A stretch of DNA of 64,000 nt from an uncultured Gammaproteobacteria bacterium (lineage in GTDB: Bacteria; Pseudomonadota; Gammaproteobacteria; Xanthomonadales; SZUA-38): positions 5,209 through 69,208 of the forward strand of contig CAZLJY010000003.1 in the NCBI GenBank assembly GCA_964559945.1, written 5' to 3'. How positions within the stretch are numbered: position 1 is the first letter of the stretch; the number at the start of each line of letters is the position of its first letter. The notes under the pieces are model-generated. The model ran no database searches and had not been told where the DNA came from. It saw nothing but the letters and a program-made list of their open reading frames with translations. The translations under genes were made by a program, and so were the position numbers. Positions 3 through 46,951 of this stretch are shown here, in pieces.

Positions 3-3000
3 TCGGGCAACGAGCTAGACAGTGAATCGTTACAAGATTTTTTTTCACCCTTGTCACCTCCGACATTCACCTTCGATCCGAAAGTCCTGTTCGACCAATT
101 TGAAAATCGTTTCGTCCTCATCACTTTGGAGCGGGAAGATGTTGCTGAGGGTGCCAGCGACAACGCGTCACGAATCCTTGTTGCGGTAAGCGATACGGAC
201 GACCCCACCGGGTCCTGGTCAGTGACTGACATTGACGGCTTGGAAGTCATTGCTGGGCAGGAGCACTGGGTGGATTTTCCGGGCTTGGCCATTGATGAAG
301 AAGCGGTCTACATCACCGCCAATATGTTTCAATTTTTTGACCAATCCGATGGCGGGTCCTTTGGTGGCGCGCGCGTCTGGATTGTGGACAAAGGCGTCAA
401 CAATGGACTGTATGATGGCGACGACGCAGACGTTGACCGCTTCAACCCTTTTACTAGCGGAACCACAGCAGCGGGCACTCACCAACCCGCTCATATCCTG
501 GGCGCACCACCGCCAGGCAATACCGGTACCTGGATGGTGCTGGCCAGCGGCTTGGGCAGCGGCAACGATCTGGAAGCCCAGGTGGTGAGAATCGACAATC
601 CGCTAGCCAACTCCCCGACCTTCAATTTTGATTTTGTATCCCTAGGAAATATCGATCAAAACCGATTTGACGAACTGGGCAACCTTCCACAAAGTGGCAG
701 CACCTTGGATCCGGACGCTGGCGACCGACGAACACTGGACGCGGTCTGGCGTGATAACTCGTTGTATTTTACTTCGGCCGTCCGCGCTCGAACCGGACCT
801 GACGCGGGAGAAAACACCGCGATTTGGGCTCAGATCAATACCCAGCAAAGCGATGACTTGGTGCAATTGGGTTTTCTGGGTGGAGAGGATATCGATGGCG
901 ATACAGAAACCGCTTATGGTGCGGTTTCCGTGAACGCCGACGGCGTTATTGCCTTAGGTTTCACCAGTGCCAACGACAGCACATTTCTTAGTTCCCATTA
1001 TGCGCTGCATGTACCCGGCGACAGCAGCGGTAGCAACCGTGGTAGCGAATTGATCCGGGAAGGCGAAGACCCTTTTGAGCTCACTTTCGGCGCCAGCGAG
1101 GTTCGCTGGGGAGATTACTCATCGGTAGCCCTGGACCCCAACGGCGTATGTTTCTGGGTGTATAACAAGCACGCCATTGACCAGGGCGGATCACCCATAG
1201 GCGGTGAAGACGGTCGTTGGGGTACCGCGGTTGCGGAAGTTTGCTTGAACCAGGCCCCTACCCCCTTAGCCGACGCGTTAACTGTGGCTGAAGGTGATGA
1301 TGTGAATCGCACCGATGAAGGCGACGATTCGTTGCTAGACAACGACAGCGACCCGGACGGTGATTCACTGGATATCAATCGCACACCGACAACCCTTCCA
1401 GGGGTCGGCACAGTCAGCATTTCGGGCAGCGGCACATTCACCTATACCCACGATGGTAGTGATTCCAGCAACGACCTGTTTCGCTATGAAGTGTGTGATA
1501 ACGGGGAACCGGAGCGTTGCGCTGAGGCCCAGGTCAATGTGGTGATTACCGAGGTCAATGACCCACCGATAGCGAGCGATGACAGCATCGCCAATTTTAC
1601 CGAGGATGACGAGGACACCATTAGCATTGCTGATTTACTGAGTAATGATGATGTAGGCGATGTTGGCACCGGGCAATCGTTGGATATTACTGAGGTGGAT
1701 AACGAGGTGGGTGGAACTGCCCGTGTCCTATCTTCCAGCATTCGCTTTACCCCAGACGACGATTTTTTCGGTCAAGCCAGTTTTCGCTATACCGCTGAAG
1801 ATGACGGCACCACCGATGGCAGCGATGACCCTCTTACCGACACCGCTACCGTGACCTTTATCATCACCGAGATCAACGATGACCCGATTGCCATCGATGA
1901 CCCCATCGATGACATATTGGAGGACACGGTCTACATGATTCCTACGGCACTACTACTGGCCAACGACAGCGCCGGGCCCGCCAACGAATCCAACCAGGCC
2001 TTAGTTATTGATAGTGTTAACAATGATATCGGCGGGAACGTGTCGTTGGATGGCGACATGGTGGTGTTTACCCCTACCAGTGAATTTTCCGGCAACGCCC
2101 GTTTTGATTATCGGATTGAAGACAACGGAACCACTAACGGCGCCGAGGATTTTCTCGACGACGTCGGACGGGCAACCTTCCGCATTATCGAGGTCAACGA
2201 CCCACCCATAGCCGTCACTGATAACTTGCCAGATGTGGAGGAAGACAGCGCGGAAATCAGAATTCCCATTGATGATCTGCTGAGCAATGACAGCGAAGGG
2301 GCCAGCAATGAGTTTACCCAGCAACTAACGCTCACCGAAGTATCCAACCCTATCGGCGGCACTGTCATGCTGGACGGCGATGACGTAGTGTTCACGCTAA
2401 CGCCACAATTCAGCGGCCCCGCCGGGTTCAACTACACCCTGGTTGACGATGGGGAAACCGACGGCCAGCCGGACCCTCAATCGGCAATTGGCATGGTGAC
2501 CTTTAGCATCGTCGGCGATAATGATCCGCCGCTGGCTTTAGCTGACACGATCACGGTAGCCCGAGGTCAACAGGCGGTGATTCTAAGTAGCGGCGCCGTT
2601 AGCCTAACTGACAACGACACAGACCCGGAGAACACCGCCCTTTCCGTGTCTCCAGCACCGATCACAGAACCCGCCAACGGTACGGTAAGTCTTGCAAGCA
2701 ACGGAAATTTTATCTACCAGCATAACGGGTTAGATCTAACCAACGACTCGTTCCAATATGAGGTTTGCGATGAGGGCTCTCCCATCTTATGCGCATCCGC
2801 GCAGGTGACGGTCAATGTGATCGAAATCCCATTCGCTCGCTGCACTGCCACTGGCTCACGAGTAGTGGTGGGGCTGCTGGCCGGGTTATCCAGTGCAGAT
2901 CTGTTCTCTTCGACCCAAGGCGATTTTACCGCAACTGGCCTGCCAAACTCTTTCAGTATTGATGCCGATAGCGGTGTCATTTCCGGCACCCCAACCAGTA

Positions 3001-3128
3001 ATGATCTTAGCGGTTCGCCGTATAACATTAGAATCACCAACAACGGTGTGATCCGACAACTGACATTGACCGTTGATGCATCAACCGATGCTTTGTTTTT
3101 CAGTGGCATAGAAAATGATTGTCTGTAG
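3..3128 (+). CDS. Large secreted repeat adhesin-like protein, 5' partial (cadherin-like / tandem ~106-aa repeats plus C-terminal putative Ig-like segment)
   Basis: The frame is open from nt 3 to the caller's TTG at 51 (no in-frame stop), so the gene most likely continues off the left edge. Residues ~400-915 hold acidic repeats, each ending in (V/I/D)ND(P/D)P, e.g. VNDPPIASDD, INDDPIAIDD, VNDPPIAVTD, DNDPPLALAD. Two flanking domains carry a conserved Cys pair (YEVCDNGEPERCAEAQV and YEVCDEGSPILCASAQV). The C-terminus has GLPNSFSIDADSGVISGTPT, typical of putative Ig (He_PIG-like) domains. Confidence 0.7.
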   Translation, partial: SGNELDSESLQDFFSPLSPPTFTFDPKVLFDQFENRFVLITLEREDVAEGASDNASRILVAVSDTDDPTGSWSVTDIDGLEVIAGQEHWVDFPGLAIDEEAVYITANMFQFFDQSDGGSFGGARVWIVDKGVNNGLYDGDDADVDRFNPFTSGTTAAGTHQPAHILGAPPPGNTGTWMVLASGLGSGNDLEAQVVRIDNPLANSPTFNFDFVSLGNIDQNRFDELGNLPQSGSTLDPDAGDRRTLDAVWRDNSLYFTSAVRARTGPDAGENTAIWAQINTQQSDDLVQLGFLGGEDIDGDTETAYGAVSVNADGVIALGFTSANDSTFLSSHYALHVPGDSSGSNRGSELIREGEDPFELTFGASEVRWGDYSSVALDPNGVCFWVYNKHAIDQGGSPIGGEDGRWGTAVAEVCLNQAPTPLADALTVAEGDDVNRTDEGDDSLLDNDSDPDGDSLDINRTPTTLPGVGTVSISGSGTFTYTHDGSDSSNDLFRYEVCDNGEPERCAEAQVNVVITEVNDPPIASDDSIANFTEDDEDTISIADLLSNDDVGDVGTGQSLDITEVDNEVGGTARVLSSSIRFTPDDDFFGQASFRYTAEDDGTTDGSDDPLTDTATVTFIITEINDDPIAIDDPIDDILEDTVYMIPTALLLANDSAGPANESNQALVIDSVNNDIGGNVSLDGDMVVFTPTSEFSGNARFDYRIEDNGTTNGAEDFLDDVGRATFRIIEVNDPPIAVTDNLPDVEEDSAEIRIPIDDLLSNDSEGASNEFTQQLTLTEVSNPIGGTVMLDGDDVVFTLTPQFSGPAGFNYTLVDDGETDGQPDPQSAIGMVTFSIVGDNDPPLALADTITVARGQQAVILSSGAVSLTDNDTDPENTALSVSPAPITEPANGTVSLASNGNFIYQHNGLDLTNDSFQYEVCDEGSPILCASAQVTVNVIEIPFARCTATGSRVVVGLLAGLSSADLFSSTQGDFTATGLPNSFSIDADSGVISGTPTSNDLSGSPYNIRITNNGVIRQLTLTVDASTDALFFSGIENDCL
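1554..2531 (+). repeat. Three tandem in-frame coding repeats (~318-324 bp each) inside the adhesin gene
   Basis: The NDPP/NDDP-encoding motif recurs at nt 1554, 1872, 2193 and 2517 (periods 318, 321, 324 bp). The repeat bodies share ...LLSNDS/LLANDS...GG(T/N)(A/V)...F(T/R)P...F(S/F)G.A.F.Y...DDG(T/E)TDG. Confidence 0.8.
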
Positions 3129-16565: not shown

Positions 16566-16598
16566 GTTAGGGGGAAAAGGATCTTTTGAACGTCTGCC
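16566..16598 (+). promoter_or_regulatory. Candidate ECF-sigma-type promoter upstream of P1
   Basis: GTTAGGGGG (16566-16574), a 16-nt spacer, then CGTC (16591-16594) inside AACGTCTGCC (16589-16598). The same architecture and the identical 10-mer recur upstream of P2. Confidence 0.4.
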
Positions 16599-16608
16599 AA
16601 CAGAACTT

Positions 16609-18033
16609 ATGAGTAAACAACGACTGATCCATAGTATTGCCATCGCCGCTCTGTTGGCTTGCGCCACCGCCAATGCAGTGCGCCTAAGTCTGGACGATTC
16701 AGGTCAGGTTTTGCTGTTCCCGTTGTTTCTCACTGGCGGCAGTTTTCAGACCATTTTTGAGATTCGCAATCAATCAGATTTGGGCAAGGCTCTGCGTCTG
16801 GTGGTTAAGGACCCGGTCAACGCGCGCCCAACCCTATCATTGAACATTTACCTGGCGCCCGGGGATAGTTGGTCTAGCGCGTTATTTAGCCCCGACCCCG
16901 ATCAACCGGTTCGTACCGCAACCGCGGTTCTCGCCAAATCCGAAGATGCCAGCTGCACCTTTCCCGAGCGCAGTGCAATCCCAGACACGGGAATGACACT
17001 CAGCGAAGCGTTTTTTAGTGAAGACTTGAGTGGCATTGTATTGAGCCAGTCGCGCCGTGCGCTAGGTTTTGTTGAAGTCTATGAGATGGGTGCAATGGAG
17101 CCAGCATTGGCCACCGACTGCGAAGAAATATCCCAGCGCTTCAGTGACGGTGGCATTTGGACCACAACACCGAATCAGGACTTGCTCCCACCGGGGGGCG
17201 GTGTGGAGGGTTACGCCATTTTGGTGGATGTAGACCAGGGACGTGCCCATCAGTACGAGGCACTGGCCCTGGAAGATTTCCGCGACTCAGCCTTACATAC
17301 CCACCCCTTGACCAGCCGTCAGCCCAACCTGATGGACGTCAGTCCGGCCGAGAGTCGGGTGCTGGAAACCGTCGAATTTGGCAATCGAACGCTGCAGGTC
17401 GAACGGGTTTCCAACTGGAGCCAGACCCCGGTGCATGCCGTGGACGCGCTGCTGATGGCCACCGAGGCTCGCACCGACTATTCCGTCGCCGCCAACCTTG
17501 ACGCAACAGTGTTCACTACCCTAAATTTCCCGACCCGGGCCTATCACGCCGATGTGGAAAGGTTTTATCTCGCTCAGGGGCAAGACCGCGTATTAGCCCC
17601 ATTCCAAACCTCCTTGCCACTGGCCGCTGCGGAGAACCTTGAAGCCAACGCCATTGAGGTCACCTCAGTGGACCGAGAAGGCCGCAATTTTACCCTCCAA
17701 CCCTTTTCAGGGCGCGTTAACTGTGATCTGGCCAATAGCGCAGTCACCACCGTATTTATGAGCAACACCATCGGGTTCACTCAGCCTTGTGACTACACCG
17801 AGGGGGAGTTCCGCGTTCCCAACAACGCCATGGAGGGTGAAGTTCGATATCAGTTAAGTGGAGAAATAGTGTCGGATGAAGGTCATGTTTTTTCTGGCTT
17901 ACCCATCGCAGGCTTTGTTATACAAAGCATCCGCAACACTCAGATCGACGTTGCACCTGGGGTTCGAGGCATTGCTGATTACGGTTGGGCCCGAGCACTG
18001 AAAATTGAACGCCAGGTCACAGACCCACAATGA
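16609..18033 (+). CDS. Uncharacterised secreted protein P1 (paralog of 22767..24032)
   Basis: Signal peptide MSKQRLIHSIAIAALLACATANA. No motif that I can assign to a characterised family. Clear paralogy to P2, with four aligned cysteines. The stop overlaps the tonB-like start (ATGA at 18030-18033). Confidence 0.85.
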   Translation: MSKQRLIHSIAIAALLACATANAVRLSLDDSGQVLLFPLFLTGGSFQTIFEIRNQSDLGKALRLVVKDPVNARPTLSLNIYLAPGDSWSSALFSPDPDQPVRTATAVLAKSEDASCTFPERSAIPDTGMTLSEAFFSEDLSGIVLSQSRRALGFVEVYEMGAMEPALATDCEEISQRFSDGGIWTTTPNQDLLPPGGGVEGYAILVDVDQGRAHQYEALALEDFRDSALHTHPLTSRQPNLMDVSPAESRVLETVEFGNRTLQVERVSNWSQTPVHAVDALLMATEARTDYSVAANLDATVFTTLNFPTRAYHADVERFYLAQGQDRVLAPFQTSLPLAAAENLEANAIEVTSVDREGRNFTLQPFSGRVNCDLANSAVTTVFMSNTIGFTQPCDYTEGEFRVPNNAMEGEVRYQLSGEIVSDEGHVFSGLPIAGFVIQSIRNTQIDVAPGVRGIADYGWARALKIERQVTDPQ

Positions 18034-18764
18034 AACAAACCCGTGGCAGACTGATCGCATGTATCGCCGCCTCCATCGTTGTGCAGCTGTTGTTGCTGGC
18101 TTGGTTGGCCCGGCCGGTTTCCTTGCCGCTGTCTTTACCGACGTTGGAAGTACTGCTGGTCAGTCCGCGGGATCTCGATAACCTGTCTGCGGCGAGTTTA
18201 CCGGCTCAAACTCAAGCTACCCAAGCGCCAACACCTTCTCAATCCGGCGATGCGCAAAGCAAGCCACCGCCCGCGCCACTTTCGGACCCACTGGCCGCCA
18301 AATCTGATCGTCAGCCAGTGCCGAACATCCCGCAATCTGGCACTGGAATCACTGCCAGCTCTATCGCTAGCGTGTTGCCGATTGATTTTACTCAAAGCCT
18401 TTCGCCGCCGCAGCCAGCTGGACAAAACCCGGCTAACTCAGTGGACTTCAGAAATCCTGACCCGCACAACGCCGGGGTGGAGCTCGCCATTCGCCAGCGC
18501 CTCGCCCAGTTTCAATCCTATCCTCCCAGCGCCCGCCGCCGGGGGATTGAAGGTGACGTCACAGTGAGATTCGTCATTGGTCAACGAGGCAAAGTGATGG
18601 ACAGTGAACTGATTAAGTCTTCCGGCTCTCGTCATTTGGATCAGGCCGCCCTTAGACTGGTGGCCGATGCGGCACCCTATCCGTCATTACCTGCCAGTAT
18701 TTCCGCCTCCAGACTAGAGGTCAAAATACCCATCGAGTACCGATTGCAGCCTCCAGCCATATAG
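18030..18764 (+). CDS. TonB family energy-transducer paralog
   Basis: N-terminal TM anchor, a Pro/Gln/Ser-rich spacer, and a C-terminal TonB domain (YPPSARRRGIEGDVTVRFVIGQRGKVMDSELIKSSGSRHLDQAALRLV...YP). Confidence 0.85.
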   Translation: MKQTRGRLIACIAASIVVQLLLLAWLARPVSLPLSLPTLEVLLVSPRDLDNLSAASLPAQTQATQAPTPSQSGDAQSKPPPAPLSDPLAAKSDRQPVPNIPQSGTGITASSIASVLPIDFTQSLSPPQPAGQNPANSVDFRNPDPHNAGVELAIRQRLAQFQSYPPSARRRGIEGDVTVRFVIGQRGKVMDSELIKSSGSRHLDQAALRLVADAAPYPSLPASISASRLEVKIPIEYRLQPPAI

Positions 18765-18786
18765 ATTTGGACGCCCTTTTCGCACC

Positions 18787-19290
18787 ATGAATTTGGCCAA
18801 CGCTGCCAACGCCGTTGAGACCCATCGCACTGAGCTCACCGCTTTCGCCGCGGCAATGGTGGGGACTCACCGGGCCGAAGACGTTGTTCAGGACGCCTGT
18901 TTTCGACTGGCCCGGGCATTGGAGCGGCAGCCCGCTGACAAACCCATAGAGAATGTGCGGGCCTATTTGTTTCGCATTACTGCCAACTTGGCGCGAGACC
19001 TGCTACGCCGTGATAAACGCTCAGACCGACATCTAAAAACCTTGGTTGAAGACGATAACAGCCCGGCTGCGGGCGAGGTTGCGGCCCTGGATGAGCAATT
19101 GGTTTTGCTTCGGGAGGCCATTGCCCAACTGCCAACCAAGTGCCGTCGGGCGTTCGTCGCGCGCAAGTATGAGGGACTTTCATACAAGGAAATCTCCGCC
19201 CGCGAGGGAATTACCGAGAAAACCGTCGAAAACCATATTGGGCGCGCACTAAAACTCCTGCGCGAGTCCATGGCCAGGCTAGAACAGTAG
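18787..19290 (+). CDS. ECF (sigma-70 family, FecI-like) RNA polymerase sigma factor
   Basis: Region 2 (VQDACFRL...YLFRITANLARDLLRR) and region 4 (LPTKCRRAFVARKYEGLSYKEISAREGITEKTVENHIGRAL). Length 167 aa. Confidence 0.9.
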   Translation: MNLANAANAVETHRTELTAFAAAMVGTHRAEDVVQDACFRLARALERQPADKPIENVRAYLFRITANLARDLLRRDKRSDRHLKTLVEDDNSPAAGEVAALDEQLVLLREAIAQLPTKCRRAFVARKYEGLSYKEISAREGITEKTVENHIGRALKLLRESMARLEQ

Positions 19291-19324
19291 GCTAGAACAG
19301 TAGGCTAGAACAGTAGGCTAGAAC
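19276..19324. repeat. Perfect 13-bp tandem repeat (AGGCTAGAACAGT x3 plus a 10-nt partial copy)
   Basis: Read directly. Units lie at 19276-19288, 19289-19301 and 19302-19314, with a partial copy at 19315-19324. The sigma-factor stop codon TAG (19288-19290) spans the junction between unit 1 and unit 2. Confidence 0.95.
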
Positions 19325-19357
19325 GGAAGTGTATGAGCCAAGCAAATATTCATTTTT

Positions 19358-19379
19358 CAACGGGTCAGCAGACCCGTTG
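19358..19379 (+). other. Intercistronic stem-loop between the sigma and anti-sigma genes
   Basis: CAACGGGTC-AGCA-GACCCGTTG: a 9-bp perfect stem and a 4-nt loop. No U-tract follows, so it is not a canonical intrinsic terminator. Confidence 0.6.
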
Positions 19380-19400
19380 TCGACCACAACGGACCAGGGC

Positions 19401-19429
19401 GTTGGGGGAATAGGGGTGATTGGAGCGTT
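19401..19429 (+). promoter_or_regulatory. Candidate ECF-sigma-type promoter-like motif upstream of fecR
   Basis: GTTGGGGG (19401-19408), a 17-nt spacer, then CGTT (19426-19429). It resembles the motifs before P1 and P2 but lies only a few nt from ATG 19433, which would imply a near-leaderless transcript. Confidence 0.25.
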
Positions 19430-19432
19430 GCT

Positions 19433-20374
19433 ATGAATACGACACAGGACAATACGACGCCAATGGAACAGGCCGCACAGTGGATGAGCCGTTTGGGAGC
19501 AACAGAAACGCCCGACTGGAACGACCCGGAATTTGCCGTTTGGCTGGATCAATCGACCCGGCATCGGGAAGCGTTTGCCGAAGTCAGCGCCCTGTGGTTT
19601 GCGGCCGAACAAATTGCGCCGGGCGACGATCTAAAGCCCCCTTCCCTGGATCACCAATGGAACCCTTTGGCAACTTCCAATCGGCGAACCTCCCGTTGGC
19701 GCATCGGTGCTGGCTTTGCGGTGGCCTTGACGGCCCTAATGTTACTACCCAATGTGCTGCAGCGCTGGACGGCGTCGCAATCAGAGTTCCTCACCCAACG
19801 AGGCGAAACCGCAAACATCACACTGGCTGACGGCTCAACGATTCAAATGGCTGGTCTCAGTGCGTTCAGTTCTTTGAGCGACGGGCGCGGCATTGAACTG
19901 CACTACGGCGAAGTTTTCCTGCAGGTTACCCATGACCCGCAAGATCCATTTGTGGTCTCTGCTGGAGATAATGAAGTCACGGTGCTGGGCACCCAGTTTG
20001 GTGTTGCATGGCGGGACGGCGAGCACCGCGCTGGCGTGGTTAGCGGTCGGGTTTCCGTGTCCTCAGGAACGGGGCCTTTAATTCAGCTGGGGCCCGGCGA
20101 GCTTGCCGTCAACGGCACCCAGAGCCGGCAGCCGGGCCAGGATTTTTTCGCCTGGCGCTCGGGCAATCTGGTGTTTACCGAGACACCACTGAGCCAAGTG
20201 ATCGATCAATTGGCCCCTTTCCTCTCTCAGCGAATTATCCGGGTACCCGGCGCTAAGGACCCCATGGTTAGCGCTGTGGTTAATCTTCGTGTTGGCGACC
20301 AAATGCTTGAAACCCTGGCCCAAAGTACGGGTATGCAGATACTGACCGCCGGGCCGGTTACACTGCTGTACTGA
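19433..20374 (+). CDS. FecR-like transmembrane anti-sigma factor / sensor
   Basis: N-terminal anti-sigma segment (AAQWMSRL...FAVWLDQSTRHREAFAEV), a single TM (IGAGFAVALTALMLL), and a periplasmic FecR domain (GEVFLQVTHDPQDPFVVSAGDNEVTVLGTQFGV). SD GGAG lies 8 nt upstream. Confidence 0.88.
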   Translation: MNTTQDNTTPMEQAAQWMSRLGATETPDWNDPEFAVWLDQSTRHREAFAEVSALWFAAEQIAPGDDLKPPSLDHQWNPLATSNRRTSRWRIGAGFAVALTALMLLPNVLQRWTASQSEFLTQRGETANITLADGSTIQMAGLSAFSSLSDGRGIELHYGEVFLQVTHDPQDPFVVSAGDNEVTVLGTQFGVAWRDGEHRAGVVSGRVSVSSGTGPLIQLGPGELAVNGTQSRQPGQDFFAWRSGNLVFTETPLSQVIDQLAPFLSQRIIRVPGAKDPMVSAVVNLRVGDQMLETLAQSTGMQILTAGPVTLLY

Positions 20375-22704
20375 TGAATGCAAAAACCCGCCGATGCGGG
20401 CTGCTGGCCCTGTTCATGGCTGGAACGCTGGTGGCTCTATCTAGTCAGGCGCAAACCCTGGAGGAGGCGCTGCGCCGCATTAGCGAACAGCAGAGCTGGA
20501 ATTACCTGCTGGGACCTGGGGTCGATCTATCCCTGCCTGTTAGTACGGATATTTTGACCGAGGCCGCGCTTGAGCAGTTCCTGCAACGATCGGCCATTAC
20601 CATCCATGTTTTGCCAACAGGCGATCGACAACTGCGCCGAGACAACCTGGCACAAGTCAGCTTGGACGCATTGCCTGTGACAGCAGCCTCATTGGCTGGA
20701 GGCGGGCCGCCACTGCGTAACGGTGTCAGCGGCACCCAGATCAGCGCGCAGGATATGGAAAATTTAAACGACACCCAGCTCGATCAACTATTCACCCGAG
20801 CTGCTAACGTTTTTGGCAGCGGTGATGAGTACTATGTTCGCGGAGTGGCCAGTGGCGGCGACCTCAATACCCTGGGCAACGCCGCGGCCGTTGTGGGTAA
20901 AGCGCCTCTGCCCAATGCCGTACTGGGAAATCTACCCTTAAGCACCTGGGATGTGGCGAGTGCCGGATTTGAGCGAGGCACCCGCAGCGCCAGCGAGGCT
21001 GGACCGTTTAGCAGTTTTGCCGGGCGCATCAGCATCCGACCCAAGGCACCGGGGTTTGCCAATGAGCATCGGTTCCGGTTAGGCCTAACCGAGCTGGGTG
21101 ATTCGCAAATTTCACTGTTGGCCAATACGGTCTTCATCGATGAAGAACTGGCAATGCGGGTTAGCGTAGATCGCCAATCCCTTGCCGGCACACTCACCGA
21201 CCCGGGCACATCCCGTTCCACGGGACTCGGGGAGGATTTTGATTTTCGCCGAAGCACCACCGCACGTGCCGCGCTATCGTGGGAACCTGCGGCCCTGCCC
21301 GCGCTGCGTGTCTCCTTGGACCTCATTGGCATTGACGGCAGTGCCGGACCCCAGCGAATAACGGCAACCAACCCCTTTGATCGGGTTGGTCGAGGACCGC
21401 CATTTTTACAGCAAGATGTCAGCGGCGAGTTGGCGACCTTAAGTGGCATCGTTGAAAGCACCAACATGGGAAATTTCAGCATCGACGTGGTGGCCTCTCG
21501 AGGTACCGCAGAGCTGGTACCCAGCCGGGTTCTAGCCAATGATCTAGACCCAGCCGACCCCTTAGTGGACGAAGAACGCGACCGCCTCCTATTCAGTCAC
21601 CTTAATTGGACTAAGACTTGGAATCACTCGACTCTCGGCATTGGTCTGAGCGCAGGACAGAATTCGCACCAGGATGGCTATTTGCGCGAGCAGCGAGACT
21701 GGCGGTTACGCAGCCGCCTACGTCGCAACACCCTCGCCTTAACTCTAGATACTGCGTTAACGAAAGCTTGGCGGTTGCAGGCTGGATTGCGCTACACCAA
21801 AGATCAATTGCGGCGCAGTTGCAGTAGCACGGCGCTGGGATCGCCTTCTTCTCAGCCCAGTGACTGTTTGCAAGTTCTAGGGCTACTACTGATTCCATTG
21901 GATGGACAATTTGAACGGTTCAGTCAACGTTATGACAACCTCAGCCCCGAACTAGCGCTGGCCTATAAGCCCTCCGCCAACAGCGAGTATTACCTGCGCT
22001 TGGCCGAAGGGTTTAACAGCGGCGGCGCTGTTTCCGACGCCACCTTTGATGGCTTACCCCAATGGATTTTCTATGAGCCAGAACGCTCTCGCGGCGCTGA
22101 GCTTGGCTGGCGCGGGCAACTTGGGAGTTTAACCGTCAACGCAACCGCATTTCACACGCAGTTAGATCAACAATGGCAGGTGATACAAGGCAATGTGGGG
22201 CTAGGAGACATCATTAACGTTGGTAATTCTAAAAGCCGTGGCCTGGAATTGGATGGGCGTTGGCAATTGTCTCCAGACCACCAGCTAGCGTTTAGCTTGG
22301 GCTGGCTCAATACGCGATTCGAAAACTTTCTGCCCTTCGAAGCCGATGCCCGGCTTGAACCTGCTGGCGGCAATCAGTTTCCCGGTGCACCGGATTTTTC
22401 CGGTTCACTGAACTGGCGCTCTAGCCTAGGGGCTGGCTGGCAAATCGGTGCTGGATTGACCTTTCACGACGCTGTACAGGCCAACGCTAACAATCCGGAT
22501 TCAGCCGAAATCCCCGCCGTTGCCTTGGCTGACTTGCGAGTCGCTTGGCAGCGCGGATCGATCACCGTGGCGTTGACGGCGCGCAACCTGTTTGACCGCG
22601 ATTATCAACAAACCACGCCCAACGTCATTCGTCGCAACCAACGCATTGATTATTTGCCTGGGCGTCCACGCAATATCGGTCTGACCCTTCAGTATGATTT
22701 TTAA
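20374..22704 (+). CDS. TonB-dependent transducer (TonB-dependent receptor with N-terminal STN signalling domain)
   Basis: Signal peptide ...LSSQAQ and an STN-like N-terminal extension (LEEALRRISEQQSWNYLL...). The body is beta-barrel-like and the terminus (RPRNIGLTLQYDF) ends in the aromatic residue typical of TBDRs. The start overlaps the fecR stop (TGATG). Confidence 0.8.
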   Translation: MNAKTRRCGLLALFMAGTLVALSSQAQTLEEALRRISEQQSWNYLLGPGVDLSLPVSTDILTEAALEQFLQRSAITIHVLPTGDRQLRRDNLAQVSLDALPVTAASLAGGGPPLRNGVSGTQISAQDMENLNDTQLDQLFTRAANVFGSGDEYYVRGVASGGDLNTLGNAAAVVGKAPLPNAVLGNLPLSTWDVASAGFERGTRSASEAGPFSSFAGRISIRPKAPGFANEHRFRLGLTELGDSQISLLANTVFIDEELAMRVSVDRQSLAGTLTDPGTSRSTGLGEDFDFRRSTTARAALSWEPAALPALRVSLDLIGIDGSAGPQRITATNPFDRVGRGPPFLQQDVSGELATLSGIVESTNMGNFSIDVVASRGTAELVPSRVLANDLDPADPLVDEERDRLLFSHLNWTKTWNHSTLGIGLSAGQNSHQDGYLREQRDWRLRSRLRRNTLALTLDTALTKAWRLQAGLRYTKDQLRRSCSSTALGSPSSQPSDCLQVLGLLLIPLDGQFERFSQRYDNLSPELALAYKPSANSEYYLRLAEGFNSGGAVSDATFDGLPQWIFYEPERSRGAELGWRGQLGSLTVNATAFHTQLDQQWQVIQGNVGLGDIINVGNSKSRGLELDGRWQLSPDHQLAFSLGWLNTRFENFLPFEADARLEPAGGNQFPGAPDFSGSLNWRSSLGAGWQIGAGLTFHDAVQANANNPDSAEIPAVALADLRVAWQRGSITVALTARNLFDRDYQQTTPNVIRRNQRIDYLPGRPRNIGLTLQYDF

Positions 22705-22707
22705 ATC

Positions 22708-22741
22708 GTTTGGGGGGCAGCGTTGTTGGCAAACGTCTGCC
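22708..22741 (+). promoter_or_regulatory. Candidate ECF-sigma-type promoter upstream of P2
   Basis: GTTTGGGGGG (22708-22717), 16 nt counted from the last five Gs, then CGTC (22734-22737) inside AACGTCTGCC (22732-22741). That 10-mer is identical to the one upstream of P1. Confidence 0.4.
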
Positions 22742-22766
22742 CGACATAGAACAACGGAGTTTAACC

Positions 22767-24032
22767 ATGAAGATTCGCTTTTTGATGATAGCCCTAATAT
22801 TGAGCTTGCCGGTTTGCACTGTGCAAGCAGTCAGCTTAGATACCAGCGGCCGCAACGCCCAGGTGCTGATATTTCCGGTGTTCACAACCCAAGGCGCCTT
22901 TGAGACCGATTTCACCATTCGAAATAACACCGACCAAGGTAAAGCACTGAGGGTCGTTACCAAAGACGCATTGGCCGGCCGCCCCACCATCAGCGTCAAT
23001 GTATACCTAAAACCCGGTGATGCCTGGAACGCGCGATTAATCGGACAGCCTGCATTCTCAGCAACGCTGGTCAGCAATGACGAAAGTTGCAGCGTACCGC
23101 GCCTCGCCTCACCGCGGGCAACCGCCGCGCAGTTAGACGCTAACCTGGATGGCGGACGTTTGCCTCGCTCCCAGCTCGTTACCGGTTATATCGAGGTGTT
23201 CGAAATGGGAGAAATCAGTCCGGAGTTGGCTGCTGACTGCGATGAGATTGATAGTCGGTTCGCCGATGGCGTGTGGTCAACTGGCGAGGTGTTGGTCAAC
23301 GACGGGGTCAGTGCTCCTGGAGGCGGCTTGTCTGGCATCTCCTATGTTCGTGACACTGCTCGCGGCAACACATTGGCGTTTCGGCCGACCGGGCTTGCCG
23401 ATTTCAGTAACGTGCCCAATCACACGGTCCGCCAACGGGCAGGCCGGCCTTCCCTGGGTAACGTTGCACCGGCGCAAGCAGAGATTGATGGACAGACCTT
23501 TGGTTTTTCCTCCAGCCCAATCAATGCCGTTGAAGCGGTTTTGATGACTCAGCAGCTATCCGCTGAGTACCATAGCCAAGAGGGCACACAGGCCTTTGCC
23601 ACGGCGATGGTCCTGCTGCCTACTCGGCCCTTTCATGCCAACCCGGGCTTTTATCGACCCTTCAACGCATCACCGTTTGACCCAGCTAACAATCAGGTTG
23701 TTGGCAACATTGTTGACAACAAAGGAGATCGGTTGAACAACTTATCTACGCCTGCGGCAGGCGAGTTGTGTGACCGCTACACTGGCGCGCTAAATTTTGT
23801 GTCGTTGATCAATTTTCTGGCGTTTAGCGCCATTTGCGATTTCGGTGAAGCCCAGCTGTTTTTGTTCAATGACGATTTTCGCGGTGTCGTGGAACTGCCA
23901 CTGACTGGCAGCGTAACGGCCGATGACGGCACATCATTCAATGGTCTTCCCGCGGTTGGTCATCTGTTGCAAACCACCCTCAATAACACCGATGAATTGG
24001 GTGTATATGCCATACCCATGAGACGGCAGTAA
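22767..24032 (+). CDS. Uncharacterised secreted protein P2 (paralog of 16609..18033)
   Basis: ATG 22767 has GGAG 8-11 nt upstream; the caller's 22710 start is a 5' extension. Signal peptide MKIRFLMIALILSLPVCTVQA. Alignable to P1 along its whole length. Confidence 0.85.
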   Translation: MKIRFLMIALILSLPVCTVQAVSLDTSGRNAQVLIFPVFTTQGAFETDFTIRNNTDQGKALRVVTKDALAGRPTISVNVYLKPGDAWNARLIGQPAFSATLVSNDESCSVPRLASPRATAAQLDANLDGGRLPRSQLVTGYIEVFEMGEISPELAADCDEIDSRFADGVWSTGEVLVNDGVSAPGGGLSGISYVRDTARGNTLAFRPTGLADFSNVPNHTVRQRAGRPSLGNVAPAQAEIDGQTFGFSSSPINAVEAVLMTQQLSAEYHSQEGTQAFATAMVLLPTRPFHANPGFYRPFNASPFDPANNQVVGNIVDNKGDRLNNLSTPAAGELCDRYTGALNFVSLINFLAFSAICDFGEAQLFLFNDDFRGVVELPLTGSVTADDGTSFNGLPAVGHLLQTTLNNTDELGVYAIPMRRQ

Positions 24033-24059
24033 GCACTAAGCCAACTGCCGCGCCCTGTT

Positions 24060-24088
24060 GCGGCCCCATTTCTGGGGCCGCTTTTTTT
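24060..24088 (+). terminator. Rho-independent terminator ending the P1...P2 operon
   Basis: GCGGCCCCA-TTTC-TGGGGCCGC followed by TTTTTTT. Confidence 0.85.
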
Positions 24089-24135: not shown

Positions 24136-24840
24136 TTACCGGCGCTCGTCCCATGAGCAGGCAACAACCACCAGCACGTAAACGCATTTCACTTCCAAAC
24201 CAAAACTCGTGACAAACCCAAATTCCGGGGTGATTTTGTCGAAACCCCGCTCTAACTTCCCACGAAAACCTGCTGAATAGAACCGAAGACCCATTTCACC
24301 AGGTTCAAAAGGCAGTTGTGGCAGCGGTCGATCGAGGGTTGTGAGCATGTTCGTTTGGTCGGCAAGCCCCAGTAGCATTGGTGGTATCTGGGGTTCAGGA
24401 GCGATATCAAGCTGGGACTGTCCATCCAGGCGGTATCGCGCCATTTGATTGAGCAAGTCATCTGCCGTCGGCCCAGCAACCTCCTCTGCGACTGGCTGCA
24501 CCGAGGGCTCTGGCATGTCCCGAGTTTCAATGGGGTCTGATTTTGGTGTATCAGGGGTAACGGGTATTTCTTCAGGCTCGGCTGGCGCGAGCTGTTCCCG
24601 CTCCAGCAGCGGTGCAGGTTCTGGACGTGCTATCGGCTCGGGAGGGGCGATTACAGGGGATATCAACTCCACCTCCAAGGCGGGTTGACGCACAGGCGCA
24701 GGCAACGGCTGGAGGCTCAACCACCACAGCACAGCGCAATGCACCAATGTAGCGATAACGAGCCAAACCGGTGCCGATAACCGCGGCCACTTTACCGCCG
24801 GCCACTGTGGACCATCCACAGCAACAACCAGAGTACCCAT
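24136..24840 (-). CDS. Membrane-anchored proline-rich protein (TonB-N-terminus-like, no recognisable TonB C-terminal domain)
   Basis: TM helix (VWLVIATLVHCAVLWWLSL), then PxP/EP-rich spacers (PPEPIARPEPAPLLEREQLAPAEPEEIPVTP). The C-terminal ~90 aa are unlike TonB_C. It lies directly downstream of ppc on the same strand. Confidence 0.55.
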   Translation of the reverse strand: MGTLVVAVDGPQWPAVKWPRLSAPVWLVIATLVHCAVLWWLSLQPLPAPVRQPALEVELISPVIAPPEPIARPEPAPLLEREQLAPAEPEEIPVTPDTPKSDPIETRDMPEPSVQPVAEEVAGPTADDLLNQMARYRLDGQSQLDIAPEPQIPPMLLGLADQTNMLTTLDRPLPQLPFEPGEMGLRFYSAGFRGKLERGFDKITPEFGFVTSFGLEVKCVYVLVVVACSWDERR

Positions 24841-40310: not shown

Positions 40311-42722
40311 TTAGAATTCAGCTCTTAAGCGAACACCCCATTCAGCACCACGAACAGGTGTAGCGAATATCTTACGGTCAATACCGTCAGACGTTGTTCC
40401 ACCATTGGTGCCCAAGTTTCTGTTGTCGGTGATGTTGATGCCGAAAAGCTCTGCACTAAAGATATCGTTGATTTGAACGCCAGCACGCAGGTTCAATCTC
40501 GTCGCCGCATCCACTTCGTTAAATTCCGCATTATCGATAAAGAACGAACCGGTATAGATCGCGTCCAATCGCACGTAGGCATCACGACCCAAAAGATTCG
40601 TTAGGTCAAAGTCAGCGGACAGACTGCCTTCGGTCTCAGGAATGTAGCGGGGACGATTTCCACTAGCATCGATTTGAGTACCGCCGGTGATCAGTCCCGG
40701 GGCAAGAACGGCACCGGCGATAGACCCTGCCAAACCGAACGAAGTCAACTCAGCATCGACATATGTAAAGCCACCGGACAACACGATTGAATCGTTAACG
40801 TTGAATACACCTTCAAGCTCTATGCCTGTGTACTCGGAATCACCCGGCAAGAAAACCGAAGCAAAAATCGGCGCTGGCGAAAGATCGAAGAACACCTGAT
40901 TGTCCCAATCCATGTTGTAGACGGCTGCGGCGTAAGAGAATCGATCATTAACCCGTTGCTTAATACCCAACTCAAAAGCGAGCAGTTCCTGCACTGGGGT
41001 AAAAAATCCTACCGTCGAAGCATCGATACCGCCTTCGGGTACAAACGCAGCATAAGCCTCTGCGCCCGTAGGATTGCCCTGCAGAAAGCTCTTAGACACA
41101 CTACCGTAGATATTCATGTCCAAGTCCGCAGGCTGGTAACTCAAAATCAGCCGCGGCATGAAGTCGTCGTATTGCTGCTCACGTCGATCAGCAGGCACAT
41201 TCTGGGGGCCATTGCGCAGCTGAGTCTGCGTGTCATCATGCCATCGGCCTTCAACGGACAGGGTTAGCTGATCGGTAAGGTCGTAGTCGATCGAGCCGAA
41301 AACACCAAAGTTTTCACCTTCCTCAAAAATCAGATTAGGAATGGGACCAAAACTGAACTGGGTCAGGAATGTGTCTTGTTGGAAATAACTCAGACCCACC
41401 GAATATCGAAAACGATCGGAGGATATCGGTGAAGTCAGGCGAATCTCCGCAGATTTATCTTCTGCATTGGACACAAAGCCGGTGTAGAAAATGTCACCGA
41501 AGCCCGGAGAACCATAGTTCTGATCAAAAATACCCCAAAACTCGCTATCGCCCATGGAATAGAACGCTTTCAAGTTGTGACCGCTGGCCAACTCGGCATC
41601 GATTGACAGGTGATGACGGGACACTTCATAGGTATTACCCAGACCGTCCGGCGGACTGAGAACACTGCCCATCTCAACCGGCGCGGTTCGTGGGTAGTCG
41701 AAGCCCCCTAAACCGAAGAAACCCACGTTAGCACCCTCAGGTGGTCGTTGACCGAAGAATGACGGGTTGATGTTTTCATCGGTCCACTCGGGAACCGAGC
41801 CGCAGAATGTGGCTCGAGTCGACTGGGACAAGTCAGTTTCGAAGGAACCGACAATCGCACCGGTGCCAACTTGACGCAAATTGCCACTGAAGGTGCGGTT
41901 ACACTCGCCAGCGGGTGTGGTTGCGCTGATGGACTGAAGCACCGAGGTGTCCTCAGAGTCAACATAAAAACCCGAATACTTGAGGGTCACATTTTCTGTG
42001 GCATCAAACTCCAAAGACCCCTGTATCGCATTTGTTTGCTCATCGCCTTGGGTTTGACCGTCACGAAACTCATATTGCCCGGGCCGATCTTCGCTAGAAA
42101 GTGTTACCCGTCCGCGAAATCGATCACCCAGCGGGCCGCTAACGGTGGCTGAAATATTGTAGCCTTCATCGGCGTCCGTTCTTGTTCCGGCAGCATTGAT
42201 GATGAACTCCAGCTCCTCGGAAGCCTTGCCTGGAATAAAGTTAACCGCGCCGGCAAAGGTATTGCGTCCAAAAAACGCCGTTTGAGGGCCTTTAATGACT
42301 TCCGTTTGGGAAAGATCGATGAGAGGCAGTACACCTACACCGTCCGCTATGTAAGCACCATCCCAGAACAGCGCACCAGCGCGGGACGCGGCGCTTCCGA
42401 CCTGGACACCAATGCCTCGAAATCGAATGGACGGATTGGTTCGACCGCTAAAGCCGCCTTGACCAGTGGTCTCAAAGGTGAAGCCCGGGACGAAATCGCC
42501 CAGTGTTTCAGCCGTATTGATGCCACGAGCGTCTAGATCGGCCTGTGAAAAGGCCGCAACAGACACCGGAATTTCCAACTGTGTCTCATCACGCTTTCGA
42601 GCCGTGACGTAGATGACATCCAAAATGTCATCATTTGAATCGCTTTGCGCTATTGCGCTCTGCGGACTTGCTAGCGCCAGCGCCAATGCGCTCATGCCAC
42701 CGATTGCCGAAACTGTTTTCAT
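40311..42722 (-). CDS. TonB-dependent outer-membrane receptor
   Basis: Signal peptide MKTVSAIGGMSALALALASPQSAIAQ and a TonB-box-like DVIYVTA. Plug motifs (EVIKGPQTAFFGRNTFAGAVNFI) and a C-terminal ...GVRLRAEF. ATG 42722; the caller's 42845 start is a 5' extension. Confidence 0.9.
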   Translation of the reverse strand: MKTVSAIGGMSALALALASPQSAIAQSDSNDDILDVIYVTARKRDETQLEIPVSVAAFSQADLDARGINTAETLGDFVPGFTFETTGQGGFSGRTNPSIRFRGIGVQVGSAASRAGALFWDGAYIADGVGVLPLIDLSQTEVIKGPQTAFFGRNTFAGAVNFIPGKASEELEFIINAAGTRTDADEGYNISATVSGPLGDRFRGRVTLSSEDRPGQYEFRDGQTQGDEQTNAIQGSLEFDATENVTLKYSGFYVDSEDTSVLQSISATTPAGECNRTFSGNLRQVGTGAIVGSFETDLSQSTRATFCGSVPEWTDENINPSFFGQRPPEGANVGFFGLGGFDYPRTAPVEMGSVLSPPDGLGNTYEVSRHHLSIDAELASGHNLKAFYSMGDSEFWGIFDQNYGSPGFGDIFYTGFVSNAEDKSAEIRLTSPISSDRFRYSVGLSYFQQDTFLTQFSFGPIPNLIFEEGENFGVFGSIDYDLTDQLTLSVEGRWHDDTQTQLRNGPQNVPADRREQQYDDFMPRLILSYQPADLDMNIYGSVSKSFLQGNPTGAEAYAAFVPEGGIDASTVGFFTPVQELLAFELGIKQRVNDRFSYAAAVYNMDWDNQVFFDLSPAPIFASVFLPGDSEYTGIELEGVFNVNDSIVLSGGFTYVDAELTSFGLAGSIAGAVLAPGLITGGTQIDASGNRPRYIPETEGSLSADFDLTNLLGRDAYVRLDAIYTGSFFIDNAEFNEVDAATRLNLRAGVQINDIFSAELFGINITDNRNLGTNGGTTSDGIDRKIFATPVRGAEWGVRLRAEF

Positions 42723-42976
42723 ACCCACCTGAGCTTCTCCCCGCATTAATATGATTGGAATATTAAGACAAACTTTTAGCACTATTCGGACGCCCAGTGC
42801 ATATGGATTTCCTATAGCTGCTATCGCGAAATGCGTAACGACCATTTATTTGCTTAGTCGTGCCTCTGATCATACCAATAACGGCGAGACAATATCGGGA
42901 CAAAATCGTGACATTTGGTTACCGTTACACGATCAATAAAGGCATAGCCCAGGTCGAATTTATCCAGGTTCAGAGG

Positions 42977-45477: not shown

Positions 45478-46951
45478 CAGGTTCACGCCAACTTCGTCCG
45501 TCCCTATCCAACAGCAACGAGGCATCCGACGGACCCCAGGTACCGGCGACATAGGGTGAAACCCGAGTGTCACTCTCCTTCCACCCATCACGAATTGCAT
45601 CAACCCAAGTCCAGGCGGCCTCCACTTCATCGCGCCGCATGAACAACGCAGGGTTGCCGCGAAGCACCTCCATCAACAGACGCTCATAGGCATCGGGATA
45701 GCGCGCCGAATAGGCTTCAGAGAAGCTCAAATTGAGCGGTAGAGAGCGCAGTTGAAATCCGCCGGGCCCTGGCTGCTTAGTTACCAAGCTTAAGGTCACG
45801 CCTTCATCGGGTTGCAGCCGAATGATGAGCCGATTGGCCTCTAACTCACCTGAGGCCTGGGGGAAAATACTGTGGGCCACCGGGCGAAACTGCAGCACAA
45901 TTTCCGAGAACTTATGGGCCAGTCTTTTACCGGTGCGCAGATATATAGGCGTGCCGCTCCAGCGCCAGTTGTCCACCTCAGCCTTGATTGCGACAAAGGT
46001 TTCCGTGACGCTGCTTTCACCTTCGGCCCCAAGCTCCTGAAGATATCCCGGAACTGCCTCACCGCTGATCGCGCCTGCGCCATACTGACCCCGGACTGTG
46101 ACCTGGCTGACGTTGCTGGCATCGATGGGACGCAACGAGCGCAGGACCCGCAGTTTTTCGTTGCGCAAATCGTCATGGTGCATGCTGATGGGAGGCTCCA
46201 TCGCCACCAGACACAGCAATTGCAACATATGGTTCTGGACCATATCTCGGAGTGCTCCAGTACCATTGTAAAAGCCTGCTCGATTGCCAACACCAAGACT
46301 TTCAGCCACCGTAATTTGAATATGATCCACGCACGTCCGTTGCCAAAGCGGCTCGAACAACGAGTTGGCAAATCTCAGAGCGGCCAAATTCTGCACCGTC
46401 TCTTTTCCCAGATAATGATCGATCCGGTAGACGTTGGCCTCAGCAAATACAGCGCCGACCCCATCGTTGATCTGGCGCGCTGTGGCCAAGTCTGTTCCCA
46501 CCGGTTTTTCCAGCACGATGCGAGATCGATCATCTTTTAGTCCGAACTCACCCAAACGCGCGGCGATGGCGGTGAATAGATTAGGTGCCGTTGCCAGATA
46601 AAACACCCGAATTCGCTCGCCACTGGCATCCAGAGTGTGGGCAAAGTCCTCCCACCCTTGGGCCGTCATGATGTCCAGTTGACTATGGTGGAGACGGCTG
46701 GAAAACCGCGCCCATACGGTCTCATCAAGCTGCCCTTCTGACAGGTGAGTTTCCAACGCTTCACGAACCAGGGAAACGAATTGTTGCTGATCAATTTGCG
46801 ACCGCGACACCGCGACAATGCGACTATCGTCAGTGAATTGCGCATCCTTATCTCGGTGATAAAGCGCCGGCAGAAGCTTGCGCTTGGCCAGATCCCCCGT
46901 GCCCCCAAAAATCACCAGATCAAACGGGTCTACCGGAACAAACTCAGCCAT
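45467..46951 (-). CDS. zwf: Glucose-6-phosphate 1-dehydrogenase
   Basis: FGGTGDLAKRKLLPALY, RIDHYLGKE and MVQNHMLQLL are G6PDH signatures. Confidence 0.96.
   Translation of the reverse strand: MAEFVPVDPFDLVIFGGTGDLAKRKLLPALYHRDKDAQFTDDSRIVAVSRSQIDQQQFVSLVREALETHLSEGQLDETVWARFSSRLHHSQLDIMTAQGWEDFAHTLDASGERIRVFYLATAPNLFTAIAARLGEFGLKDDRSRIVLEKPVGTDLATARQINDGVGAVFAEANVYRIDHYLGKETVQNLAALRFANSLFEPLWQRTCVDHIQITVAESLGVGNRAGFYNGTGALRDMVQNHMLQLLCLVAMEPPISMHHDDLRNEKLRVLRSLRPIDASNVSQVTVRGQYGAGAISGEAVPGYLQELGAEGESSVTETFVAIKAEVDNWRWSGTPIYLRTGKRLAHKFSEIVLQFRPVAHSIFPQASGELEANRLIIRLQPDEGVTLSLVTKQPGPGGFQLRSLPLNLSFSEAYSARYPDAYERLLMEVLRGNPALFMRRDEVEAAWTWVDAIRDGWKESDTRVSPYVAGTWGPSDASLLLDRDGRSWREPDAR

Follow-up and report, generated by a model that had tools for sequence, protein, structure and literature searches.

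The DNA analysed here (the window) is a stretch of 64,000 nucleotides (nt) from contig CAZLJY010000003.1 of an uncultured gammaproteobacterium (Xanthomonadales, SZUA-38) known from metagenome assemblies only. It contains a compact module of six genes encoding a secreted protein (P1), a TonB paralog, an extracytoplasmic function (ECF) sigma factor, a FecR-type anti-sigma factor, a TonB-dependent receptor, and a second secreted protein (P2). By sequence homology P1 and P2 belong to the superfamily of the surface-layer (S-layer) protein NpdA. We tentatively interpret the module as a self-activating cell-surface-signalling cassette in which the NpdA-like P1 and P2 would be both the outputs and the surface partners of the transducer, and give this reading a probability of about 0.4.

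Organization of the module

The module contains the following features (lengths in amino acids, aa).

16609–18033, + strand: P1, 474 aa; Sec-exported diverged NpdA-family paralog
18030–18764, + strand: TonB paralog, 244 aa; Pfam TonB_C 4.9e-18, TIGR01352 2.5e-19
18787–19290, + strand: ECF sigma factor, 167 aa; Sigma70_r2 1.5e-12, Sigma70_r4_2 1.2e-17, TIGR02937 2.1e-22
19433–20374, + strand: FecR-type anti-sigma factor, 313 aa; Pfam FecR 9.1e-17, DUF4880 6.2e-06; NF007296 9e-17 (below cutoff)
20374–22704, + strand: TonB-dependent receptor, 776 aa; Pfam barrel PF00593 8.9e-31
22767–24032, + strand: P2, 421 aa; Sec signal peptide; GGAG ribosome-binding site 8 nt upstream
24060–24088, + strand: intrinsic terminator; stem of 9 pairs (8 G-C), 4-nt loop, T7 run

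An initial annotation, made from the sequence alone, had described six same-strand genes forming one compact unit, with P1 and tonB overlapping as ATGA (18030–18033), fecR and the receptor gene overlapping as TGATG (20372–20376), and a strong terminator at the end. All six open reading frames (ORFs) are found on the + strand, both overlaps agree with the ORF coordinates, and a hairpin with a T-run is present at 24060–24088. The two paralogous exported proteins bracket the unit as described, and both carry signal peptides; the P2 start had been placed one base off, its ATG being at 22767 and not 22768. Where fecR begins is ambiguous: with a promoter-like site ending 4 nt 5′ of the ATG at 19433, initiation at codon 11 (19463) or codon 18 is likelier. 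A perfect 13-bp tandem repeat (AGGCTAGAACAGT × 3.8; 19276–19324) runs from the last sigma factor codons into the sigma–fecR spacer, and is followed by a hairpin-like CAACGGGTC...GACCCGTTG at ~19358–19380.

P1 and P2 are related to NpdA

P1 and P2 share 34% identity over 443 columns (E 2e-71) and are thus paralogs, as first proposed. Neither has a match in Pfam or NCBIfam, and searches with 9 + 4 distant relatives likewise reveal no family in these databases. A profile search of PDB sequences finds nothing (best E value 0.9). The AlphaFold2 (AF2) model of P1 is all-beta-rich (predicted local distance difference test score, pLDDT, 80.6; predicted template modelling score, pTM, 0.84), and a Foldseek search of this model against the PDB returns nothing below E 0.001 and galectin- or eqolisin-like sandwich fragments alone (template modelling score, TM, <0.2), indicating that P1 has no solved structural relative.

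The placement came instead from profile comparison with NpdA. NpdA is the surface-layer protein of Delftia acidovorans (strain Cs1-4) and Paracidovorax citrulli (AAVE_RS20655 / WP_011797163), and is described as having a signal peptide, a 52-kDa mature form and no conserved domains, and as being encoded downstream of 12 gsp genes (PMC10765051; see also PMC3110197). With a profile built from the P1/P2 clade only, the experimentally proven P. citrulli NpdA scores 71.7 bits and the gammaproteobacterial Neptunomonas ortholog 160 bits, and P2 is 28% identical to the latter over residues 22–415 (E 5e-27). Homology of P1 and P2 with NpdA extends over the whole length, including conserved Cys residues, and the proteins have in common the motifs GQVL(L/I)(F/Y)P.(F/Y), xRN/VNT, KA(L/V)(R/K) and Y(L/M)xPxDxW, as well as SCT.P, EG..E(V/I).EMG, FPT(R/K) and GLP..GF. 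They also share a Sec signal peptide, a mature size of ~45–52 kDa, the absence of a Pfam domain, and annotation as 'hypothetical'. On the strength of these alignments P1 and P2 are members of the NpdA superfamily, and the family that the initial annotation had been unable to place can be named (clade profile 72–160 bits). That annotation had also called for profile and structure searches, of which Pfam, NCBIfam and Foldseek proved empty, and had regarded a match to a family with a known role as counting against a functional tie to the transducer; the homology to NpdA is such a match and does so only in part.

The P1 signal peptide ends ANA|V, and AxA|V cleavage motifs are present in both proteins. 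A lipoprotein interpretation of P1 (LLAC) was rejected, as this Cys is not conserved whereas the AxA|V site is. Four Cys residues are invariant across the P1/P2 clade; with two conserved Cys pairs, both proteins are probably disulfide-bonded.

Word-indexed protein searches found 15 relatives for P1 and six for P2, the 15 all being 'hypothetical' proteins from marine Xanthomonadales- or Lysobacterales-type metagenome-assembled genomes (MAGs). This suggested a tiny family, a picture overturned by an exhaustive search with the clade profile, which recovered 2,695 cluster representatives (50% identity level) at E <= 1e-3 and 665 at E <= 1e-30. A metagenome scan with the clade alignment returned just two loci, one of them a duplicate. 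Typical family members are secreted proteins of 450–540 aa; some are tandem doubles of ~950 aa, and there are fusions of two NpdA units to long DUF285/BspA-type repeats, up to 1,647 aa in length (P0021–P0035, P0029, P0036).

Conservation of the module

In P1-type loci the order P1–TonB–sigma–FecR–receptor is present in 10/10 independent loci, with P1 identities of 44%–79%, so that the linkage is conserved and not due to chance, and the proposal of one compact cell-surface-signalling operon with its own TonB holds throughout (a TonB_C gene in all 10). The order was read directly in nine loci (the window, L001; L096, L090, L095, the P0007 contig, L004/L005, L091, L006, and L007), across which P1 identity falls from 74% to 44%; for the tenth (79%) it was deduced from the P0002 and P0167 locus tags. 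A partial locus, L092, is consistent with the same order.

The genes following the receptor are more variable. P2 alone is present in the window, L096 and L090; P2 together with a ~900-aa PF09826 beta-propeller protein in L004, L006 and the P0007 contig; and the propeller alone in L095 and L007. This 'Beta_propel' protein (760–913 aa, E 1e-95) is frequently the last gene of the module and is absent from the window. Its gene is located as follows.

L004, 17490–20207: PF09826 beta-propeller gene
L095, 15966–18623: PF09826 beta-propeller gene
L006, 11531–14272: PF09826 beta-propeller gene
L007, 7532–8269: PF09826 beta-propeller gene
L092, 2558–4837: PF09826 beta-propeller gene

P2 is therefore dispensable, being missing from L095 and L007 where the propeller protein is present instead, and it evolves faster than P1. 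P1 and the sigma factor are the most conserved module proteins, and in all comparisons the receptor is less conserved than P1 (29% versus 44% at the deepest split). In L006 (9651–11501) two ORFs (147 + 311 aa) take the place of an intact P2 gene, and the receptor gene has a short additional receptor-like ORF behind it, which may reflect a frameshift, decay or an assembly error.

The window, L096, L090 and L095 share one chromosomal neighbourhood (PALP, yebC, ruvABC), and L004, L006/L091, L007 and the P0007 contig have other flanks, giving at least three neighbourhoods in all. Because gene order is kept in these different settings, the module is judged from its genomic contexts to move as a unit.

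Canonical npdA loci

When genomes were scanned with an alignment of distant family members, at least 595 hits were obtained, and 80 loci were kept; counts for canonical npdA loci refer to these 80. They include Neptunomonas, Nitrincola, Halioglobus, Pseudoteredinibacter, Gilvimarinus, Wenzhouxiangella, Chiayiivirga, Rudaea, Nitrotoga, Usitatibacter and many Lysobacterales, the same taxa that are listed for npdA orthologs in PMC10765051. Loci L009 and L021 encode that paper's Nitrincola and Pseudoteredinibacter orthologs at 96–97% identity, the remainder being noise from optical character recognition. Aeromonas VapA/AbcA had been the first lead for these loci and was dropped in favour of NpdA, which was suggested by the literature and verified by sequence.

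De novo clustering of neighbours, together with Pfam searches of L008, reveals a conserved operon. It begins with gspF-G-H-I-J-K-L-M-C-D, a 144-aa ORF and npdA, followed by an Ig/cadherin or other secreted protein, a PpiC isomerase, a Wzm/Wzt ATP-binding cassette (ABC) exporter, a methyltransferase and glycosyltransferases. Type II secretion system (T2SS) genes are present in 71/80 loci, PpiC in 60/80 and Wzm/Wzt in 53/80. The additional genes suggest that the S-layer has a glycan (for anchoring or glycosylation) and a foldase of its own; PMC10765051, as far as its available text goes, describes the gsp linkage of npdA and not the rest of this extended operon. Six npdA paralogs are arranged in tandem in an Ahniellaceae MAG (L081, 2982–13654).

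TonB, sigma, FecR or receptor genes adjoin npdA in 0/80 of the canonical loci, and the sole locus with a nearby receptor gene, L021, has it 5 kb away. P1-type genes are always accompanied by TonB, ECF sigma, FecR and receptor genes, a linkage that the initial annotation had proposed to look for in P1/P2 homologs in general, whereas homologs outside the clade lack this linkage and follow the T2SS cluster, from which the tie to receptor, sigma and FecR genes is taken, on genomic context, to be a property of one small diverged subfamily and not of the NpdA family as a whole. In a neighbour-joining tree of 117 sequences (without bootstrap) the P1 and P2 types, with P0016 and P0020, form a clade apart from the 80 canonical NpdAs and do not group with them as orthologs. 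The window genes also differ in position, lying not directly 3′ of a ~12-gene gsp cluster but inside a TonB/sigma/FecR/receptor operon with ECF promoters, and in lacking the usual companions (the 144-aa protein, PpiC, Wzm/Wzt and glycosyltransferases). NpdA itself forms an S-layer, and P1 and P2 are known from genes alone.

Co-occurrence of the module with canonical npdA could be checked in two genomes, and both carry a T2SS–npdA locus in the same assembly (JANQOZ01, L090 and L040; CAZVYE01, L007 and L052). P1 and P2 are 25–28% identical to the resident NpdA in these genomes. It follows that they are extra to the ordinary S-layer gene there, and that an NpdA-type secretion system is at hand.

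Receptor, TonB, and sigma and anti-sigma factors

The initial annotation had described the receptor as an STN-domain transducer. Pfam does not detect STN in the receptor or in its isolated N-terminus, and the barrel is the only domain above threshold (8.9e-31), with Plug at E 0.013–0.069 (16.4 bits versus a 23.9 cutoff). Remote homology is nonetheless found by profile–profile alignment and structure prediction: hhalign matches the receptor end-to-end (99.6% probability) to P0178 (STN 54–104, Plug 136–240, and barrel), with receptor residues 28–95 aligning to STN and ~120–230 to Plug, and AF2 predicts a beta-alpha-beta / beta-alpha-beta-beta unit at residues 27–89/90 (pLDDT 70–81), the plug being unmodelled (pLDDT 20–27). 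Foldseek places FyuA, Fiu, YncD, FoxA, PqqU, FecA and FpvA at the top (E 1e-21 to FyuA and others), of which FoxA, FecA and FpvA are themselves transducers. An invariant LxALP(V/I)xA at residues 97–104 (LxALPVTA in the window), conserved in the clade, is plausibly the TonB box, and the plug region is strongly conserved within the clade though atypical. The receptor is thus predicted to be a divergent TonB-dependent transducer with an N-terminal signalling-type domain (~27–90), an atypical plug and a 22-strand-type barrel. Its clade is tiny, with eight close homologs followed by a drop to 28% identity.

The TonB paralog has an N-terminal transmembrane helix, a Pro-rich linker and the TonB_C domain, and is presumably specific for the module receptor. 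It must depend on ExbBD or TolQR encoded elsewhere; TolQ (tol-pal) lies 6 kb upstream of the module. The transmembrane motif at residues 15–19 is SxxxQ in the window and L096, and SxxxH in L090, L095, L004, L091 and L006. The sigma factor is 45–82% identical across module loci and is followed by the anti-sigma factor with its FecR and DUF4880 domains, a pairing of the FecIR type.

Promoters and regulation

Alignment of 220 nt upstream of P1 from eight loci reveals a conserved element, TTTGGGGG(A/T)A...CGTC, in which the G-run and CGTC are always 16 nt apart. This spacer is fixed in length but not in sequence, as is typical of an ECF-type −35/−10 pair (consensus TTGGGGG-N16-CGTC); the element is present upstream of P1 in 8/8 loci. 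Three copies are located in the window.

16568–16594, + strand: promoter before P1, TAGGGGG-N16-CGTC; −10-like CGTC ends 14 nt before the ATG
19402–19429, + strand: promoter variant before fecR, TTGGGGG-N17-CGTT; read from sequence
22709–22737, + strand: promoter before P2, TTTGGGGGG-N16-CGTC

The strict motif TWRGGGG-N16-CGTC has a single match in the window (16568–16594; chance expectation 0.13), and among all 96 fetched loci is confined to 13 module loci, with 19 hits in 169 kb of module DNA and 0 in 1.35 Mb of other DNA. Every site in the module loci lies between genes and on the same strand as these. The N16 motif precedes fecR in 6/8 loci (with CGTC in L091, L006 and L007, and CGTT in L096, L090 and L095); the window fecR promoter, with one extra spacer base, may be weaker. 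Four loci (the window, L096, L090 and L006) also have the motif before P2; in L007 it precedes the propeller gene and in L092 the P0016 gene. Three looser GGGG-N16-CGTC sites without the TT prefix were rejected: those at 46007 (−) and 58933 (+) in the window lie inside ORFs and are taken to be chance matches, and one in the T2SS region of L052, considered as a sign that the regulon includes the canonical locus, is not conserved in L040.

We infer that the sigma factor of the module reads TTGGGGG-N16-CGTC. The suggestion that P1 and P2 are regulon outputs of this sigma factor is directly supported by the conserved ECF-type promoter before both genes. Because the sigma gene sits in a P1–tonB–sigma unit behind its own promoter type, the simplest reading of the circuit is positive autoregulation. 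Upstream of P1 no Fur box is evident (best scores of 9–13/19 in eight loci against a random background of 8–14), and a sigma-70 promoter scan is at background level. CGTC lies 9–18 nt from the P1 start codon (window 16591–16611, L090, L095, L096, L004) without a Shine-Dalgarno sequence; a correct promoter assignment would thus imply an mRNA for P1 with little or no leader. The motif and the P1 start as called overlap in L007, where the true start must be farther downstream.

A model for the signalling cassette

The outer-membrane transducer (20374–22704) would sense an extracellular ligand and, energised by the module's TonB, act through its N-terminal signalling domain on the FecR-type anti-sigma factor. 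Release of the ECF sigma factor would then fire the three promoter copies, expressing P1–tonB–sigma, fecR–receptor and P2, with positive feedback through the sigma gene. P1 and P2 are proposed to reach the surface, most plausibly by the NpdA-dedicated T2SS encoded elsewhere in such genomes, and to cooperate there with the receptor as extracellular partners that capture or present the ligand at the surface layer. They would be both output and co-inducer, following the logic of the Has system (hasISRADEB), the one well-studied case in which a single operon unites a sigma factor and its anti-sigma factor with a transducer, a secreted partner and a TonB of its own. Ligand capture in the manner of a hemophore, SusD or HxuA, which the initial annotation had suggested for P1 and P2, may thus apply.

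Several points weigh against this model. Co-inheritance and co-regulation are equally expected if P1 and P2 are mere outputs, and the physical tie between them and the receptor is drawn from genomic context. Their sole characterised relatives are lattice-forming structural proteins and not ligand binders, and the replacement of a dispensable P2 by an unrelated beta-propeller protein suits cargo better than an obligatory partner. The two genomes in which a T2SS–npdA locus was found do not include that of the window, the AF2 model of the receptor is poor overall (pLDDT 53) with STN and Plug failing Pfam thresholds, and the fecR promoter copy in the window is imperfect (N17, CGTT). The pairing of sigma factor and motif is argued from their exclusive co-occurrence, and with no Fur box the usual iron logic is not evident.

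Nearly as likely is that the sensor triad and TonB are a pure signalling device, like the non-iron systems PrhA/PrhR/PrhI and VreAIR, with P1, P2 and the propeller as inducible cargo for an accessory or alternative surface layer, which would alter the cell surface upon a cue without cooperating physically with the receptor. P1 and P2 match a lattice-forming S-layer protein over their full length and retain its conserved Cys pairs and motifs, each has its own ECF promoter copy, P2 and the PF09826 protein behave as interchangeable downstream cargo, genomes with several npdA paralogs exist (as in L081), and the receptor has no accompanying importer genes. The partner model is preferred because P1 always occurs together with the receptor and TonB genes and is translationally coupled to tonB, because it changes more slowly than the receptor whichever loci are compared, a pattern not usual for a structural S-layer subunit exposed at the surface, and because it is not required for the ordinary S-layer, a separate canonical npdA being present in both checkable genomes. 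The TonB box and the atypical conserved plug retained by the receptor also speak against cargo alone, suggesting real transport or gating.

A bolder form of the partner model, and on balance a doubtful one, is that duplicated S-layer subunits became extracellular receptor components in a marine Xanthomonadales-like lineage, such that P1 (with P2 or the propeller), placed in or on the surface layer, captures the ligand, hands it to the transducer beneath and, jointly with the ligand, induces its own synthesis.

It is improbable that the receptor and TonB serve to export P1 and P2 as a TonB-powered outer-membrane channel replacing the T2SS. The sole precedent known for such export is Oar, a TonB-dependent transporter of Myxococcus without which PopC is not secreted. 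The receptor and TonB do occupy the place that T2SS genes have beside canonical npdA in 71/80 loci, the plug is conserved in the clade yet too atypical for Pfam, and the tiny receptor clade is restricted to the module. However, an N-terminal signalling domain with FecR and an ECF sigma factor is characteristic of importers that sense ligands, large beta-rich proteins with two conserved Cys pairs would be hard to pass through a 22-strand barrel, and both checkable genomes keep an npdA-linked T2SS. Least credible is chance or mere synteny without any functional tie between P1/P2 and the signalling genes: plain synteny accounts for part of the conservation, as the window, L096, L090 and L095 share a neighbourhood, but the order persists between different flanks in L004, L006/L091, L007 and the P0007 contig, gene overlap couples P1 to tonB, and one motif is common to P1, fecR and P2 with none in 1.35 Mb elsewhere.

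Comparison with known systems

The module resembles FecIRA, FpvAIR and FoxAIR in its ECF sigma factor, FecR-type anti-sigma factor, transducer with N-terminal extension and TonB box, and siderophore-receptor-like barrel. It differs in having its own TonB, no Fur box and no binding protein or ABC importer, in STN and Plug domains too divergent for Pfam, and in carrying S-layer-family genes. The sigma gene is behind its own promoter type, implying autoregulation, whereas neither fecIR nor hasI is autoregulated (PMC9249621).

In the Serratia marcescens Has operon (hasI-hasS-hasR-hasA-hasD-hasE-hasB) HasB is a TonB paralog of its own and HasA is secreted (PMC9249621, PMC9008036, PMC3602595). Has and the module have in common a sigma factor, anti-sigma factor, transducer, secreted protein and transducer-specific TonB paralog in one operon, as well as control of the anti-sigma gene by the sigma factor, which in the module is presumed from the promoter motif. 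They differ in gene order and in the probable autoregulation of the module sigma factor. Moreover, P1 and P2 are unrelated to HasA, and the module lacks type I secretion genes, a haem or iron signature, and a Fur site.

Gram-negative S-layer genes as a rule adjoin an outer-membrane export machine, often with O-antigen ABC-exporter genes, as illustrated by the loci of Aeromonas VapA/AhsA and Pseudoalteromonas Slr4 with their dedicated T2SS (as cited in PMC10765051; PMC4483657, PMC7821379). The 80 canonical npdA loci follow this pattern, and in the window the adjoining machine is a TonB-dependent transducer.

VreAIR of P. aeruginosa combines a receptor-like sensor, an anti-sigma factor and an ECF sigma factor in a system that governs surface or virulence functions and not an iron importer (PMC2729926). 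It differs from the module in having neither NpdA-like genes nor a dedicated TonB in the operon, and in that VreA has no barrel. Ralstonia PrhA/PrhR/PrhI is also a non-iron cell-surface signalling system with surface or virulence functions, and is likewise not known to have NpdA-like genes or a TonB in the operon.

Both halves of the module, the NpdA S-layer family and FecIR-type cell-surface signalling, are known. What appears to be new is their union in one conserved cassette, together with the private TonB, the autoregulatory promoter layout and the very divergent receptor clade; a literature search found no paper tying NpdA-like proteins to TonB-dependent signalling. S-layer genes are usually bound to a secretion system, and here a diverged pair is bound to a TonB-dependent signalling circuit. 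Cooperation of P1 and P2 with the receptor would mean a new link between a surface lattice and uptake or sensing; as cargo only, they would be a rare Gram-negative example of an S-layer remodelled under the control of a signal. Should they have become receptor components, they would be an S-layer-integrated counterpart of a hemophore system and would show how nutrients are sensed or taken up across a closed protein lattice. The NpdA S-layer family comprises at least 2,695 protein clusters (nearly all members being labelled 'hypothetical') and is covered by neither Pfam nor NCBIfam; a model for it would give names to thousands of genes. Although the hosts are uncultured, the TTGGGGG-N16-CGTC promoter and the compact 7.5-kb cassette make heterologous testing possible in principle.

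Other features of the window

The module lies among mostly housekeeping genes, with those for cysteine synthase, a 2-oxoglutarate (2OG) oxygenase, yebC, ruvAB and tol-pal upstream, and those for phosphoenolpyruvate (PEP) carboxylase and a glucose-methanol-choline (GMC) oxidoreductase downstream. The initial annotation correctly stated that ExbBD, ABC importer, siderophore and haem genes are absent from the locus. Pfam searches of the ORFs reveal no periplasmic binding protein or ABC importer genes in the locus; there are no ABC/membrane fusion protein (type I secretion) genes within the unit and no Gsp genes among the window ORFs scanned, and Rfam and tRNA scans of the window gave no matches.

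A 234-aa ORF without a Pfam hit (24136–24840, − strand) is situated near the downstream end of the module, as are minus-strand ORFs of similar size, also without Pfam hits, in L096, L090, L095 and L004. It is probably outside the module, since the terminator lies between. The window encodes a second TonB-dependent receptor of 844 aa (40311–42845, − strand), whose Plug domain is normal (9.5e-11), unlike that of the module receptor. A 1,025-aa protein of Big_9 and cadherin-like repeats is encoded at the left end (51–3128, + strand), and members of this domain family are encoded directly after canonical npdA in L008 and 12 other loci.

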